Source: an uncultured Thiotrichales bacterium
Lineage (GTDB): Bacteria; Pseudomonadota; Gammaproteobacteria; UWMA-0217
Assembly: GCA_964620675.1 (NCBI GenBank)
Contig: CAZUJU010000009.1
Coordinates: forward strand, 13,943 to 77,942
Direction: 5' to 3'
Length of the DNA: 64,000 nt
In this document: piece after piece, positions 29,194 to 57,335 of the stretch
How positions within the stretch are numbered: the first letter of the stretch is position 1
Layout: each line of letters begins with the position of its first letter
The notes under the pieces: generated by a model
Seen by the model: the letters and a program-made list of their open reading frames with translations, nothing else
Told to the model about the DNA's origin: nothing
Database searches by the model: none
Position numbers and translations under genes: made by a program

Positions 29194-29217
29194 GCAAAGT
29201 CGGTCGACCGCGTTAAC

Positions 29218-29356
29218 TTTCATGGCGATGGCACCGCCCCGGAGGATGAAAGCCGCTCCGGGCCGGCCAGGCGGGAGACGCCGTGAATCCATCCATGGAG
29301 GCTCGGCAGCCGCCTCCCTGCGGCCGACGCGCCCGTCTGGCCAACCCGGAGCGGCA
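29218..29356. repeat. Copy B of the structured repeat of about 135 nt, between convergent rlmD and the PPIase gene
   Basis: Aligns end to end with 1045-1178. Stem GGCCAGGCGGG (29265-29275) pairs with CCCGTCTGGCC (29332-29342), with the single G-U wobble at a different position from copy A. Confidence 0.55.
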
Positions 29357-29428
29357 GTCGTTCGTTCACGTTAAAGAACGCGGCCGGCCGATTTCAGTCG
29401 AATGATACGAAACGGAAACCGCGGGGCG

Positions 29429-52508: not shown

Positions 52509-55500
52509 TCAATGAAAATCCCGCGAGCTCGTGACGAGCGCGCCAAGCCAGTCGGTATGATCGACAAGTTTGTCGGCGACGACGTGGATCACCATTCCTT
52601 CGCGTTCGACCTTGCCCTGCACCAGCAGCAGTCTGCCCTGTAGTACTTCGCGGCGAAAGCGCTCGCTGATCCGCGCCCAGACAATCAAGTTGGCAACCCC
52701 GTGTTCGTCCTCCAGCGTAATGAAGATTGCGCCACTGGCGCTGGCCGGATGTTGGCGGTTGGTGACCAGGCCGGCCAGACGTACCCGACTGCCGTGCGCG
52801 CGGGTGGACAGGTCGCGCGTCGAGATCCAGCCGAGGCGAAGAAAGCGCGGGCGGAGCAGTGCAAGCGGATGGCGGCGCAACGTCAGGCCAAGACTCGCGT
52901 AGTCTCCGGCAATGTCCTGTCCCTCGGTCGGGCCGGGAAGGCGCGGGGGTTCATCCCGCACGGCGCTGTTCGCCAGCAGCCCCGGCAGGATTTCGCTTCC
53001 AAGTGCCTCCCAACGGGCGCGGTGGCGGTGACCGGCAAGGCTCGCAAACGCATCCGCGGCGGCCAGTGCGTCGCGGTCGCGCTGATCCAGGCGGGCGCGG
53101 CGAATCAGTTCGCCAAGATCGCCCACCATTCCGTTGTTATCCCTGCGTATCGCCAGCAGACGTTCGGCCCCAGCACGGCTCAAGCCCTTCACTTGGTGCA
53201 TGCCGAGCCGGAGTGCCAGAGCGCCATCGGTGCCATGCTCCAGCGTCGATTCCCAGGCGCTTCGCAAGGCATCGACCGGGCGAACCTCGACCTGGTGTCG
53301 GCGCAGATCCTGCACCAGTTGCGAAGGCGAGTAGAAGCCCATTGGCTGGCTGTTGAGCAAGGCGCAGGTGAAAACCGCCGGGTGGTAATGCTTGAGCCAA
53401 GCGGAGACGTATACCAGCAACGCAAAGCTCGCGGCATGCGACTCGGGGAAGCCATATTCGCCGAATCCCTTGATCTGATTGAAAATTTGTTCTGCAAAAT
53501 GATCCGCGTAACCGCGTGCACGCATGCCCTCGACCAGGCGCTGGTGGAAGTATTCGAGGCGATAGCTGCGCCGCCACGAGCCGATGGCGCGGCGTAATTC
53601 GTCCGCCTCGCCGCCGCTGAAACCCGCCGCGACCATCGCCAGTTCGATCACCTGCTCTTGAAACAAGGGCACGCCGAGGGTGCGTTCCAGCACCCGTCGG
53701 ACTTCTGCGCTCGGGTAGGTGACTGGCTCTTCGCCCCGCCGCCGCCGCAGGTACGGATGCACCATCTCGCCCTGGATCGGCCCGGGGCGCACGATCGCGA
53801 CCTCGATGACCAGGTCGTAGTAATTCGCCGGCTTTAATCGTGGCAGCATGTTCATCTGCGCGCGCGATTCGATCTGGAACACGCCGATGGTGTCCGCACG
53901 CTGAATCATCGCGTAAACCGCCGGGTCTTCGGCCGGGACATCGGCGAGTTCGAGGTCGGGGCCTCCGTACTGGCGTAACAGCGCGAAACAGCGCTGGATC
54001 GCGGCCAGCATGCCGAGTGCGAGACAGTCCACCTTGAGCAGGCCGAGCGCGTCGAGATCGTTCTTGTCCCACTGAATGATTGTGCGCTCGGCCATTGCCG
54101 CGTTTTCCACTGGCACCAGGCGCGACAGCTGGTCGCGCGCGATGACAAATCCCCCAACGTGCTGCGAAAGGTGACGAGGAAAGCCGCGCAGCTCGCCGAC
54201 CAGGTGTAGCAGGCGCACGAGCACCGGGTTGTCCGGCGCAAATCCGGCCTCGCGCAAGCGCTCCGGCGGGATGCCCTCGTCCCACCAGGCGAGCGTTTTG
54301 GTGAGCCGATCCACTTGATCGAGCGAGAGACCGAGCGCCTTGCCGGCATCGCGCAGCGCGCTCCGGCGGCGGTAAGTGATCACAGTCGCCGCGAGCGCGG
54401 CGCGGTGGCGGCCGTATTTCTCGTAGAGGTACTGCATGACCTCCTCACGGCGCGCGTTGTCGAAGTCGACGTCGATATCGGGCGGTTCGTTGCGTTCCCT
54501 GGACACGAAGCGTTCGAACAACATCGACACCCGTTCCGGGTCGACCGCCGTGATGCCGAGGCAATAGCACACCGCCGAATTCGCCGCGGAGCCGCGCCCC
54601 TGGCAAAGAATCCCGCGGGCGCGCGCGAACGCGACGATGTCATACACCGTAAGAAAATAATGCTCGTAGCGCAGTTCGGCAATCAGCGCGAGTTCGTGCT
54701 CGATCATGCGCCGCACTTTGGCCGGCGCGCCGGTCGACCAGCGTTGACGGATGCCCGCTTCGGTCAGTTGGCGCAGATGGCTGGTCGCGGTCTGACCCGT
54801 CGGCACCAGGTCGTCCGGGTACTCGTAACGCAGTTCATCGAGACTGAAGGTGCAGCAATCGGCGATGTGTACCGATTCGGCGAGCCAGGCGGGCCGGTAA
54901 AGCTCGGCGAGCGTCGTGAGGGGACGCAGGTGGCGTTCGCCGTTTGGGTAGAGCGCGAATCCCGCCGCCGCGAGCGGGATGTTGAGGCGGATCGCGGTCA
55001 CCAGATCCTGTAGCGCGCGCCGGCCGCGTTTATGCATATGGACGTCACCGCAGGCCACCAGGGGGACGCCGGACCAGGCGCTGGCCTCGGCCAGGGCCGT
55101 GATCCGAGCCGTCTCGTCCGGCAGGTGCAGGCACTCGACCGCGAGCCAGGCCCGCTGTGGAAACCACGCGCTGAGCCAGATCAATCCCTCACGGAGCGTG
55201 AGCGGCGCCGGACTTATCCCGACGCTGCCGCCCGCGCATGCAACCGGCGTGCCCGCGCAATCGTTGGGTGCCGGTCGGACTTGTGATGACTCGGCAACAA
55301 AAGTGGGGGAGTGGTGCCCTTTCGTTCCAGACGAAAGGGGCGTCAAATCGCTATGGCGATTCTCCTCAAGCGAGCGACTCATCCGCGAGGAGCGGATTGA
55401 GCGGCGATCGCCGGCCCGCAGGGCGTTGGGCAGGAGGCCCGGAGTAAAAAATGCCCTCGCTCCCCCACTTTTTCGCCGTGCTCCCCCCAGGTCCGACAGG

Positions 55501-55955
55501 TGCTCGGGCTGCGCCGGGGCAGGGGCGGGTGCGTCTTGCGTGAGCGCGAATGCCGCACCGCTGGCGGTTGCGGTGGTTTCCGGCACCCACACCGCCAGGC
55601 AATCCGCGAGGGTGCCTTCGAGATCGGCGCGCCGCAATGCGTACTGGCCTTTCGGGCTGCGGCGGCGCCCGGTCGTGATCAATGCCGCGAGCTGGGCGTA
55701 ACCCTCCCGGTTGCGCGCGAGCAGCACCAGCTTCGGCCCGTCCTCCAGGCGAACCTCGGTGCCAATCAAGAGCTTCAACCCGACCTCTTTCGCTGCGACA
55801 TGCGCCCGGACCACGCCGGCGAAGGAACACTCATCGGTAATCGCGAGCGCCGCGTAGCCCAGTTCCGCCGCGCGCCGCACCAGCTCCTCCGGCTGCGAGG
55901 CGCCGCGCAGGAAGGTGAAATTGGTCAGACAGTGGAGTTCGGCGTAGGCAGTCAT
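52509..55955 (-). CDS. dnaE2: Error-prone DNA polymerase DnaE2 (ImuC), carrying an in-frame insertion of about 58 aa
   Basis: N-terminal PHP domain (MTAYAELHCLTNFTFLRGAS) and Pol III alpha core motifs. No imuA/imuB upstream. Confidence 0.9.
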   Translation of the reverse strand: MTAYAELHCLTNFTFLRGASQPEELVRRAAELGYAALAITDECSFAGVVRAHVAAKEVGLKLLIGTEVRLEDGPKLVLLARNREGYAQLAALITTGRRRSPKGQYALRRADLEGTLADCLAVWVPETTATASGAAFALTQDAPAPAPAQPEHLSDLGGARRKSGGARAFFTPGLLPNALRAGDRRSIRSSRMSRSLEENRHSDLTPLSSGTKGHHSPTFVAESSQVRPAPNDCAGTPVACAGGSVGISPAPLTLREGLIWLSAWFPQRAWLAVECLHLPDETARITALAEASAWSGVPLVACGDVHMHKRGRRALQDLVTAIRLNIPLAAAGFALYPNGERHLRPLTTLAELYRPAWLAESVHIADCCTFSLDELRYEYPDDLVPTGQTATSHLRQLTEAGIRQRWSTGAPAKVRRMIEHELALIAELRYEHYFLTVYDIVAFARARGILCQGRGSAANSAVCYCLGITAVDPERVSMLFERFVSRERNEPPDIDVDFDNARREEVMQYLYEKYGRHRAALAATVITYRRRSALRDAGKALGLSLDQVDRLTKTLAWWDEGIPPERLREAGFAPDNPVLVRLLHLVGELRGFPRHLSQHVGGFVIARDQLSRLVPVENAAMAERTIIQWDKNDLDALGLLKVDCLALGMLAAIQRCFALLRQYGGPDLELADVPAEDPAVYAMIQRADTIGVFQIESRAQMNMLPRLKPANYYDLVIEVAIVRPGPIQGEMVHPYLRRRRGEEPVTYPSAEVRRVLERTLGVPLFQEQVIELAMVAAGFSGGEADELRRAIGSWRRSYRLEYFHQRLVEGMRARGYADHFAEQIFNQIKGFGEYGFPESHAASFALLVYVSAWLKHYHPAVFTCALLNSQPMGFYSPSQLVQDLRRHQVEVRPVDALRSAWESTLEHGTDGALALRLGMHQVKGLSRAGAERLLAIRRDNNGMVGDLGELIRRARLDQRDRDALAAADAFASLAGHRHRARWEALGSEILPGLLANSAVRDEPPRLPGPTEGQDIAGDYASLGLTLRRHPLALLRPRFLRLGWISTRDLSTRAHGSRVRLAGLVTNRQHPASASGAIFITLEDEHGVANLIVWARISERFRREVLQGRLLLVQGKVEREGMVIHVVADKLVDHTDWLGALVTSSRDFH
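55299..55472. mobile_element. MITE-like palindromic element of 174 bp inserted in-frame in dnaE2
   Basis: Perfect 13-bp terminal inverted repeats AAAAGTGGGGGAG (55299-55311) and CTCCCCCACTTTT (55460-55472). Internal 8-bp hairpin CCCTTTCG...CGAAAGGG (55317-55339). Length is a multiple of 3, and the encoded 58-aa segment is low complexity, sitting in an extended PHP-domain linker. Confidence 0.5.
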
Positions 55956-56182: not shown

Positions 56183-56905
56183 TCATACTTCAAACCGCAC
56201 AATCGGCTCGGAGCGCTCATAAACCTGGGTGATGCGTTCGCCGTTCCAGACATAGACGAGGTGCGCGCCTTGGATCGGTGCGGAAACGGCCGGCGGACGC
56301 AACGCGGCGATGCATTCACCGCCGGGGTGGCGCACGCTGCGGTAATAAAGCCCCCATGAACCGGTTGCGCGCAGTGACTGGGCGTAGGCTTGCGCGAGCG
56401 GATGGTCGCCCGGGTCGGGGGCCGCGTCGTGTAATGGATCGAATTCGGGTAGGCGGATGTCGTGCAGCGGCTTTTGTACCCGGCCGATCCAGGCGCGCAG
56501 ACTGAACTCGGTCTCGCTCAGGGCCGCGTGGCGAGCGATGCGTTCGCGGTGGTGCACGGTCTCGCGAATCGCGGTTTCGAGCGTACGCCCGGCGTAGTAA
56601 ACACCGTAACTGCCATCGCTGAAGCGCGATGGCCAGCCAATGTGGGTGAATGCCGCCATGACAATGCTGGCCCCGGGTCCGCTCAGACGGTCGACCGCCG
56701 CGACCCGGTGCAGGTCTCCGGTTTCTTCGAGGAGGCGCGGATTGGTCCGCGTTTCCAGTTCCCACACGGCGCCGAGAAGGTCGGAGGGCACGTGGCGTTC
56801 GAAGAAGTCAATCGGTGGATAGCGGGTGGCAATGATGCGGTACTGCTTGCCGGGCGGCCGCAGGATTGCGGGCAGGGGCAGGGCTTCCAGGCCCGGTGAA
56901 TTCAT
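56183..56905 (-). CDS. RES-domain toxin (RES-Xre toxin-antitoxin system; NAD+-targeting family)
   Basis: RES-domain features: conserved R...E...S spacing including YRIIATRYPPIDFFER and GSWGLYYRS. Preceded by a DUF2384-type antitoxin gene with a 10-nt gap. Confidence 0.75.
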   Translation of the reverse strand: MNSPGLEALPLPAILRPPGKQYRIIATRYPPIDFFERHVPSDLLGAVWELETRTNPRLLEETGDLHRVAAVDRLSGPGASIVMAAFTHIGWPSRFSDGSYGVYYAGRTLETAIRETVHHRERIARHAALSETEFSLRAWIGRVQKPLHDIRLPEFDPLHDAAPDPGDHPLAQAYAQSLRATGSWGLYYRSVRHPGGECIAALRPPAVSAPIQGAHLVYVWNGERITQVYERSEPIVRFEV

Positions 56906-56915
56906 GCCGGCCTAT

Positions 56916-57335
56916 TCAACCGCGCGCGGCGTCGAGGTAACGGCGGACGTCGGCCAGCGCGACCAGCGAACCGCTCAAGAGATAATCCAGCGGCGCGCGG
57001 CCTTGGAATAGCGGATCGCCGTTGGGGTTTTTCAACCATTCGCGCGCGCTGCGGTCGGAAAACAAAATATGCAGCGCCTTGTAGATGCCGAGCAGGTAGC
57101 TGATGCGATCGAGTGTGTCGCGCGAGAGTTGGCCGGCAAGATGTTTCTTCCATTTGAAAAAGGTCGAACGGGCCGGATCGCCGAGCAATACGCGCTGTTG
57201 TTCGTTGTCCAGGTTCCATTCGCTGGCAATCGAGAAGAACGCGGTCAGACCCGCTGCGGCAAGTTGGGCCTCGGAGTACTGCGGCGTGGCGATCGTATAG
57301 ACGGACCTGTGATCAGCGATTTGCATGGCGGACAA
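56916..57335 (-). CDS. Xre-like/DUF2384 antitoxin of the RES-Xre pair
   Basis: 139 aa, with the C-terminal DUF2384-like motif (DPLFQGRAPLDYLLSGSLVALADVRRYLDAA) seen in MbcA/ParS-type antitoxins. Confidence 0.7.
   Translation of the reverse strand: MSAMQIADHRSVYTIATPQYSEAQLAAAGLTAFFSIASEWNLDNEQQRVLLGDPARSTFFKWKKHLAGQLSRDTLDRISYLLGIYKALHILFSDRSAREWLKNPNGDPLFQGRAPLDYLLSGSLVALADVRRYLDAARG

Follow-up and report, generated by a model that had tools for sequence, protein, structure and literature searches.

The 64-kb window, by which we mean the whole stretch of DNA analyzed here, carries a gene for an error-prone DNA polymerase that is interrupted by an in-frame palindromic segment; the coordinates of the gene and of the parts of this segment are collected in Table 1. 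The product of the gene scores 1439 bits against the NCBIfam profile NF004225 (“error-prone DNA polymerase”), for which the cutoff is 939, and all five of the expected Pfam domains (PHP, DNA_pol3_alpha, finger, HHH_6 and OB) are present. By family score and domain architecture the protein is DnaE2, as proposed in the initial annotation of this DNA. The same annotation raised the possibility that the insert marks the gene as decaying; this did not hold up. The residues invariant across 16 aligned orthologues are all kept, including the Asp motif PDIDVDF, and the full-length ORF is also retained in two sister assemblies. Pseudogenization can be ruled out given the intact ORF and the retention of the invariant residues of this 17-sequence alignment, and by these features the gene is not decaying.

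Table 1. Coordinates of dnaE2 and of the palindromic insert in the 64-kb window
Feature	Position	Strand	Basis or remark
dnaE2 ORF (error-prone DNA polymerase, 1148 aa), host of the insert	52509-55955	minus	ORF list and translation
Whole expanded PHP loop, codons 129-248, predicted disordered	55212-55571	minus	AlphaFold2
Extended imperfect palindrome, ~318 bp, probable full inserted unit	55229-55546	no strand	outer boundary approximate
Left arm, statistically secure part	55271-55322	no strand	outward 28-nt in-register test
Left-arm perfect 13-bp core, AAAAGTGGGGGAG	55299-55311	no strand	“TIR” of the initial annotation
Inner hairpin, 9-bp stem, 5-nt loop, 100% complementary	55317-55325 / 55331-55339	no strand	
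Central 126 nt, several small hairpins, not self-complementary as a whole	55323-55448	no strand	
Right arm, statistically secure part	55449-55500	no strand	same tests as left arm
Right-arm perfect 13-bp core, CTCCCCCACTTTT, exact reverse complement of the left core	55460-55472	no strand	

The segment first drew attention as a 174-bp element bounded by perfect 13-bp terminal inverted repeats. The two 13-mers are indeed perfect reverse complements; with a seed of 10 nt, the whole window contains just 12 local inverted repeats, of which this is one, and no further match to AAAAGTGGGGGAG occurs in it even when one mismatch is allowed (0.04 expected by chance). The 174 bp between their outer ends are free of stops and, as 55955-55472 gives 483 nt or 161 codons, correspond exactly to the 58 codons 162-219 of dnaE2 (KSGGARAFF...GHHSPTF). 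However, the 13-mers do not mark the ends: the sequences outside them remain complementary in the same register over at least 28 nt on either side, with a score of 8 versus -6.3 ± 3.1, a value equaled in none of 2000 shuffles and none of 1189 window controls of the same geometry. Farther out, weak complementarity in register persists over another 42-46 nt (p ~0.007-0.009, with boundaries chosen post hoc), and the 11 nt inward from the 13-mers reach p ~0.05. Local alignment of the left half with the reverse complement of the right half likewise gives a score of 24, against 12.1 ± 2.0 for shuffles (maximum 19). Since the complementarity runs past them, each 13-mer is better understood as the best-preserved part, or core, of an arm that measures at least 52 nt, and the figure of 174 bp or 58 codons is a consequence of having picked that core. 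The arms and the centre share a single exact symmetry axis at 55385.5, and the arms are ~70-79% complementary around the still-perfect 13-bp core. Both minimum-free-energy and centroid folds consist of 4-5 short stem-loops closed by the long stem of the arms, with z-scores relative to shuffles of -4.66 as DNA (410 nt) and -4.22 as RNA (251 nt, sense strand). The internal hairpin that had been described with a stem of 8 bp is real, though its stem is 9 bp long.

Alignment to orthologues shows this segment to be an insertion rather than a native conserved part of the protein: neither P0002, the closest orthologue (1073 aa, 85% identical), nor 14 of the 15 other aligned DnaE2 proteins have it. 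Hence, the initial annotation was right in seeing an in-frame palindromic insertion but underestimated the unit, for P0002 lacks ~312-318 nt at the insert site, which fits the extended palindrome and not 174 bp. The size was estimated by affine-gap alignment and by an in-frame deletion scan against the loop of the sister species; the deletions that best restore similarity to that loop are 312-318 nt long (e.g., 55234-55548) and lie on a broad plateau of nearly equal solutions. As the loop of the sister species does not permit a base-by-base alignment, the ends of the insert can be given only approximately; the palindrome is probably co-extensive with the insertion. The insert also differs from the remainder of the gene in composition. 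Its GC content is flat across the three codon positions (0.57-0.63, 0.62 and 0.63-0.66, against 0.72, 0.47 and 0.79 elsewhere in dnaE2); of all 58-codon windows of the gene, the one with the lowest GC3 begins inside the insert, at codon 182. Between 55250 and 55399 the GC content of 100-nt windows is 0.58-0.59, with neighbors at 0.66-0.76. In its composition, then, the insert DNA looks non-coding; a search of 1.84 billion representative proteins with its 107-aa translation gave 0 matches at E <= 0.001, and no Pfam family was detected on it. The insert is found unchanged in two other assemblies, the sister MAG GCA_050330555.1 and a stromatolite assembly from ENA. Compared with the window, their dnaE2 genes have 8 and 6 differing positions, respectively, none of which lies in the insert. 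Because it is shared by assemblies whose dnaE2 differs elsewhere, an assembly artefact is ruled out.

These data bear directly on the reading that a native low-complexity linker contains the inverted repeat by chance or through its composition. By a rough estimate, a 64-kb window at 67% GC would be expected to contain about one perfect inverted repeat of 13 bp spanning no more than 200 nt, and the outer arms taken alone are not significant in a local test (13 versus 11.9 ± 2.1), both of which would be in keeping with chance. Yet the in-register extension was matched by no shuffle and no window control, and the segment is absent from an orthologue with 85% identity and has no coding GC pattern. 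At the sequence level this reading is largely refuted, and we regard it as barely credible.

The insert had been placed in the linker between the PHP and polymerase domains; instead, it splits the PHP domain itself. The Pfam PHP match ends at residue 100, the NCBIfam profile picks up again at residue 256 (profile position 153) and the GDVHMH motif lies downstream of the insert. Residues 7-108 and 156-206 of Escherichia coli Pol III alpha align to residues 4-99 and 258-308 of the window protein, and the E. coli PHP alignment is split by the insert also when the PHP-only crystal construct is used. By these alignments, the site is a variable loop within the PHP domain. In the AlphaFold2 model, residues 129-248 have a pLDDT <50 and no secondary structure, and lie between a strand (119-124) and a helix (254-264); the insert is thus predicted to be translated as a disordered surface loop. 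Comparison with 101 homologues having scorable anchor motifs gave a median KGxY-to-GDVH distance of 84 aa. This loop is expanded by >25 aa in 10 of the 101, and the longest distance, 201, is that of the window protein and its 99%-identical sister P0121. One of the homologues, P0075, has a tandem duplication of ~43 aa in the loop. Moreover, three independent dnaE2 genes (L069, L076 and L077) carry significant lower-GC DNA palindromes in the same loop, with self-complement scores of 52, 35 and 34, respectively (shuffle means ~12-13, shuffle maxima 23-31). Like the window insert, these are in frame, have a GC content below that of the host gene and are significantly self-complementary; however, they are built of short hairpin pairs of the GGGGGAGGG/CCCTCCCCC type spanning 60-116 nt, whereas the window element is longer, of different sequence and single-copy in the data examined. 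The three palindromes are unrelated in sequence and occupy different positions within the loop, and the repeat units of L069 and L077 recur elsewhere on their own contigs.

The initial annotation compared the insert to miniature inverted-repeat elements and pointed to further genomic copies and target-site duplications as the evidence to look for, taking the lack of both as grounds for abandoning the comparison. No second copy was found in the 64-kb window, in ~80 kb of the same genome (including flanks taken from the sister assembly) or in the loci of the sister species, and blastn searches of plasmid and phage records recovered no further copy. Pattern scans for exact 18-26-base matches in 185,579 representative genomes, JGI metagenomes and IMG/VR returned nothing or chance-level matches confined to a 13-25-nt seed, with no extended similarity. 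One locus in a Chloroflexota MAG (L027) gave an nhmmer E-value of 0.004; it was rejected because this locus had been chosen for its 19-nt exact match in the first place and because it lacks a second arm in inverted orientation. Dispersed palindromic repeats do occur in this genome, which counts in favor of a repeat origin: a 145-nt family has two copies in the window, but its kinship with the insert was rejected, the alignment scores being at the level of shuffles. Since no second copy turned up, the MITE claim is unproven, and so is the membership of the insert in a repeat family.

As for target-site duplications, there is no direct repeat at the outer ends of the 13-mers (flanks ...GGCAAC / TCGCCG...), and scanning all near-symmetric boundaries gave only 4-5-nt matches at or below chance (2 boundary matches of >=5 nt observed versus a control mean of 4.5). 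The best candidate, a 5-nt GGTGC around 55272-55498 that would delimit a 227-bp element, is at chance level, and an insertion bounded by it would break the reading frame because 227+5 nt is not a multiple of three. Repeats mobilized by IS200/IS605-type tyrosine transposases are not expected to show a target duplication, and its absence at the dnaE2 insert would fit this type of mobilization. No transposase or IS with matching ends was found: single-arm exact scans of representative genomes and JGI metagenomes, which would miss an IS with diverged ends, gave chance matches without extended similarity. Rfam yielded no match at the gathering threshold and noise only at E <= 10, and no promoter-like or terminator-like site was found.

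It is here that an origin in situ has to be considered, namely an inverted duplication through template switching or hairpin-primed repair, either in an already expanded loop or around captured filler, followed by decay and involving no mobile element. A single copy in everything searched, no target-site duplication above chance and the placement of arms and centre on one exact axis are all in line with such an event, and the loop accepts other expansions, such as the tandem duplication in P0075. Nevertheless, neither arm resembles the loop of the sister species, the rest of the gene or the window, and a foreign, non-coding composition characterizes the entire unit and extends to its non-palindromic centre of 126 nt. 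Further, three other dnaE2 genes have palindromes in this loop, two of them (L069 and L077) with units that recur on the contig. On balance, we consider an origin in situ rather unlikely.

Comparison with known repeat families allows the insert to be placed more closely. Correia elements (CREEs) are characterized by a Neisseria-type 26-bp TIR consensus and a TA target duplication. In the window there is no TA at either junction of the outer 13-mer ends, the Neisseria-type 26-bp TIR is absent and the host is not a Neisseria, so that by its sequence the insert would not qualify as a Correia element. MITEs are defined by inverted repeats at their termini, direct repeats on either side and a presence in multiple copies, none of which could be demonstrated for the window element: it does have an inverted repeat, but the perfect 13-mer lies within longer arms, and no target-site duplication rises above chance. 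In size and lack of coding character it does fall within the range of MITEs (about 70-500 bp), being at least 230 bp and probably ~318 bp long, with flat codon-position GC and no protein homologue. Coxiella QMITE1/2, Correia and ERIC elements resemble it in their size (70-400 bp), their inverted repeats, a lack of coding capacity, folding into a long stem and the fact that they are at times inserted in frame within ORFs (PMC5896051, PMC10969869).

In-frame insertions of both RPEs and QMITEs have been described (PMC10969869, PMC5896051). The Rickettsia palindromic elements (RPEs) are ~100-150 bp long and are translated in frame within intact genes at fold-compatible positions (PMC10969869). They form a multi-copy family with a conserved encoded peptide, whereas the window peptide is without a match in the 1.84 billion proteins; in addition, the window element has about double their length, resembles none of the sequences searched and resides in a Thiotrichales-like MAG. 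Thus, it is in frame as RPEs are, but judged by its peptide it would not belong to them. REPs are known within replication and repair genes, explicitly including those for error-prone DnaE2 (Di Nocera et al. 2013, PMC3733652), and are typically stem-loops of 20-40 bp with a GTAG or CGTC tag and a high copy number, often arranged as inverted dimers (PMC3733652). These REP inserts and that of the window have in common a palindromic non-coding repeat in frame, a functional-looking gene, DnaE2 as host and a flexible loop as the site. In contrast to REPs, the window unit is ~315 bp long and consists of two arms, each at least 52 nt in length, around a centre of 126 nt; no other copy of it was found. 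Furthermore, unlike in the RAYT-associated REP/BIME elements, its arms are not themselves stem-loops, and the only possible tag is a lone CGTC at 55341-55344, one base past the 9-bp hairpin (G+CGTC at 55340-55344), which is at chance level. The proposed likeness to MITE, RPE and Correia elements stands as regards a palindrome that is in frame like RPEs and intragenic REPs, and is not supported as regards target duplication or, in the sequences searched, further copies.

Taken together, we interpret the segment as a genuine palindromic insertion in frame, most probably a solitary MITE/REP-like repeat that has decayed. Specifically, we favor, with a probability of roughly 0.55, a history in which the PHP loop of dnaE2 received a palindromic, non-coding element of the repeat type, ~315 nt long, whose arms decayed thereafter. 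The element, either MITE-like or an inverted dimer of the REP/RPE type and presumably moved by a transposase, would have entered the variable PHP surface loop after the split from the lineage of the sister species. The insertion would have survived by virtue of a length that is a multiple of three, a stop-free frame and a loop tolerant of extra residues. What is seen at present would be a stretch of ~105 disordered residues, probably neutral or nearly neutral for the polymerase, encoded by a repeat whose arms have since decayed to ~70-79% complementarity and whose 13-bp core is still perfect.

As palindromes recur in this loop among other dnaE2 genes, the insert could also be taken for a functional structured nucleic-acid element, e.g., an mRNA hairpin tuning the translation or stability of a mutagenic polymerase, or a recombination or protein-binding site, with the translated loop as a by-product. 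This would agree with the strong predicted structure (z = -4.2 as sense-strand RNA) and with a 13-bp core that is perfect while the flanking arms have decayed, and the REP study itself asks why repair genes are enriched for such inserts (PMC3733652). However, neither an Rfam match nor promoter-like or terminator-like sites were found, the available copies are all identical, so that there is no covariation to read, and the other dnaE2 palindromes are unrelated and differently placed in the loop, as would be expected of a tolerant loop more than of a shared function. A functional element accordingly appears very unlikely to us.

In all, palindromes in the DnaE2 PHP loop are found in at least four independent lineages, and ~10% of the 101 close homologues are expanded there. 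A broader proposition, which we offer as speculative and distinctly unlikely, is that unrelated palindromic repeats have landed or been retained in this loop again and again in different lineages, for reasons beyond mere tolerance, with the window element as the largest example and a representative of a previously unseen family. Such recurrence could possibly result from hairpin-targeted insertion during the SOS-induced transcription or replication of dnaE2, or from selection for mRNA or DNA hairpins that dampen the expression of a mutagenic polymerase.

In-frame palindromic inserts are already known for repair genes, and the DnaE2 gene class has already been reported among them. The practical value of the present case is modest: the insert shows where the PHP domain of DnaE2 is permissive, may serve as a strain or lineage marker for the stromatolite Thiotrichales-like population and calls for caution in annotation because the 105 extra residues are no domain. 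If it is a decayed mobile repeat, it would be another instance of a selfish palindromic DNA absorbed into a protein as a disordered loop. If the recurrence in the loop were targeted or selected, it would link the biology of repeats to the control of induced mutagenesis.

By sequence comparison, the segment inside the window's dnaE2 is an insertion relative to its orthologues. The host gene product scores 1439 bits against the NCBIfam profile NF004225 "error-prone DNA polymerase" (cutoff 939) and contains the PHP, Pol III alpha, finger, HhH and OB domains; hence, its assignment as DnaE2 holds. Its closest homologue, P0002 (1073 aa, 85% identical; encoded by the MAG of a stromatolite "Thiotrichales bacterium"), has a loop of ~25 residues where the window protein has ~130, and the remaining aligned orthologues likewise lack the segment, so that the alignment proposed in the initial annotation supports an insertion. 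A base-by-base DNA alignment of the two loops was not attainable. A deletion scan showed that in-frame deletions of 312–318 nt best restore likeness to the sister-species loop, and the NCBIfam profile agrees (~22 profile positions covered by ~127 residues); thus, the inserted unit is ~315 nt. The element size of 174 bp (58 codons) given initially arises only from taking the perfect core of the palindrome as its boundary. An assembly artefact is ruled out, because a 99.7% identical 1148-aa DnaE2 is present in the sister MAG GCA_050330555.1 and the ENA assembly of SRR3310977, with 8 and 6 nucleotide differences, respectively, every one outside the unchanged insert.

The insert lies within the PHP domain and not in the PHP-to-polymerase linker, where it had been placed. 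The Pfam PHP match is interrupted at residue 100, and residues 7–108 and 156–206 of E. coli Pol III alpha align to DnaE2 residues 4–99 and 258–308, a split also seen with the PHP-only crystal construct; the conserved GDVHMH motif is C-terminal to the insert. In an AlphaFold2 model of modest overall quality (mean pLDDT 61.9, pTM 0.39), residues 129–248 lack secondary structure and have pLDDT below 50.

The perfect 13-bp inverted repeat reported initially is present, and the 174 bp between its outer ends indeed read without a stop, as codons 162–219 (KSGGARAFF...GHHSPTF); a scan of the window that allowed one mismatch gave no other occurrence of the 13-mer. These repeats do not form the ends, as complementarity runs on outward in register: the 28 nt directly outside each score 8 vs. 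-6.3 +/- 3.1, a value matched by 0/2000 shuffles and 0/1189 same-geometry window controls. A further 42–46 nt outward are complementary in register at p ~0.007–0.009, with boundaries picked after the fact, and the outer parts of the arms alone are not significant in a free local test. The palindrome region folds considerably more stably than its shuffles, with z = -4.66 (DNA) and z = -4.22 (sense-strand RNA), and the internal hairpin is real, with a stem of 9 rather than 8 bp. Such folding would also fit a hairpin that has a function in the dnaE2 gene or its mRNA, which we consider unlikely.

Coordinates of dnaE2, its palindrome and associated features (in the window unless a locus is named)
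Feature	Position	Strand	Remark
dnaE2 ORF	52509-55955	minus	1148 codons; ORF list + NCBIfam NF004225
Left core AAAAGTGGGGGAG	55299-55311		exact reverse complement at 55460-55472
Right core	55460-55472		exact reverse complement of AAAAGTGGGGGAG
Secure arms of inverted repeat	55271-55322 / 55449-55500		
Probable full palindrome	55229-55546		318 bp
One of two best deletions	55234-55548		nearly the extended palindrome; optimum a broad plateau
Palindrome directly upstream of dnaE2 start codon	55960-56003		44 nt, near-perfect; 21-nt arms, 95% complementary
Xre-type antitoxin + RES-domain toxin genes	56183-57219	minus	directly upstream of dnaE2
Same arrangement with dnaE2, sister species	L004 8630-9773		
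~145-nt repeat	1041-1184; 29214-29361		intergenic, sharp ends
Partial ~145-nt repeat, sister species	L001 9830-9919		78% identical; RES-dnaE2 spacer
Tyrosine-recombinase genes, other lineages	L070 8975-9985; L071 8967-9995; L077 36-1073		directly upstream of dnaE2
AAAAAGGGGTCTGACCCCTTTTT-type hairpin-pair repeats	L069 1992-2051; 3357-3447		in frame, two further sites of dnaE2

Outside the loop, GC at codon positions 1/2/3 of dnaE2 follows the usual coding periodicity (0.72/0.47/0.79); in the insert it is flat (0.57–0.63/0.62/0.63–0.66), and the lowest-GC3 58-codon window of the entire gene begins within it, at codon 182. GC is 0.58–0.59 in 100-nt windows between 55250 and 55399 vs. 0.66–0.76 in adjacent windows. 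For the 107-aa translation of the insert, neither Pfam nor a set of 1.84 billion representative proteins gave a match. Together, the flat codon GC, lower GC, missing protein homologues and missing modelled structure are the signature of non-coding DNA read in frame by chance, and not what a long-established native linker or domain would show. That the inverted repeat arose by chance in a native linker is highly improbable, being largely excluded by the in-register arm extension, the flat codon GC and the deletion scan. The gene shows no sign of the suggested decay: its frame is unbroken and all invariant residues of a 17-sequence alignment are kept, including the PDIDVDF Asp motif.

No second copy of the element was found in the window, in ~80 kb of the same genome (window plus flanks from the sister assembly), in the sister species' loci or, by blastn, in plasmid or phage records. 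In 185,579 representative genomes, JGI metagenomes and IMG/VR, scans for exact patterns gave nothing, or chance-level matches limited to the seed; that the element itself was not recovered there places the source genome outside the representative-genome collection. No target-site duplication rises above chance. IS200/IS605-type tyrosine transposases are not expected to leave one, and its absence is therefore no argument against such mobilisation. The RAYT/TIRYT association is covered elsewhere (PMC3733652). As these searches yielded neither a second copy nor fixed ends nor a target duplication above chance, the insert, though palindromic and in frame as first described, cannot be classed as a MITE. 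A solitary copy would also fit inverted duplication in situ or filler capture, a possible though doubtful origin.

The same loop is variable in other DnaE2 proteins. Measured from KGxY to GDVH, its median length is 84 residues in 101 close homologues, 10 of which are expanded by >25; the longest (201) is that of the window DnaE2 and the 99% identical homologue P0121. Thus, the PHP-domain loop of DnaE2 tolerates expansion. We fetched the loop DNA of three dnaE2 genes from other lineages that have a repeat-like translation (L069, L076, L077). All three loops contain a significant palindrome (self-complement scores 52, 35 and 34; shuffle means ~12–13) lower in GC than the host gene, and in L069 and L077 units of the repeat are found again at other places on the contig. 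The AAAAAGGGGTCTGACCCCTTTTT-type copies in L069 are additional to a 116-nt palindrome in the PHP loop of the same gene. In another homologue, P0075, the loop (residues ~135–225) contains a tandem duplication with a ~43-aa unit (SARVARPI...GDDGYV); therefore, it also grows by non-palindromic mechanisms.

An unrelated dispersed repeat of ~145 nt, with ~87% identity between its two window copies, forms a fold in which a long closing stem encloses inner hairpins. It has no Rfam match and no sequence relationship to the insert, but shows that this genome has other palindromic repeats. This, the tolerance of the loop, the palindromes in other dnaE2 genes and the published cases cited below all favour a repeat as the source of the insert. 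The window's RES-dnaE2 spacer has a more degenerate trace of it at the same place as the sister-species copy. The 44-nt palindrome upstream of dnaE2, whose core GTGTTTAAATATACAC (GTGT-N8-ACAC) is kept upstream of the sister-species gene, may be a LexA/SOS-type operator; no imuA or imuB adjoins the window dnaE2. The tyrosine-recombinase genes of the three other lineages (Phage_int_SAM_4 + Phage_integrase) are separated from dnaE2 by 5–15 nt in two of the three.

The best explanation of the insert, at a probability of roughly 0.55, is that a palindromic non-autonomous repeat persists here as a decayed solo copy. The event resembles the insertion of RPEs or intragenic REPs, and this kind of event is already known: REPs occur within replication and repair genes, with error-prone DnaE2 explicitly included (Di Nocera et al. 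2013; PMC3733652), and in-frame RPE and QMITE insertions have been reviewed (PMC10969869, PMC5896051). Such a repeat would have entered the permissive PHP-domain loop of dnaE2 and been kept because the reading frame was preserved; the copy would since have decayed, leaving its translation as a disordered passenger in DnaE2.
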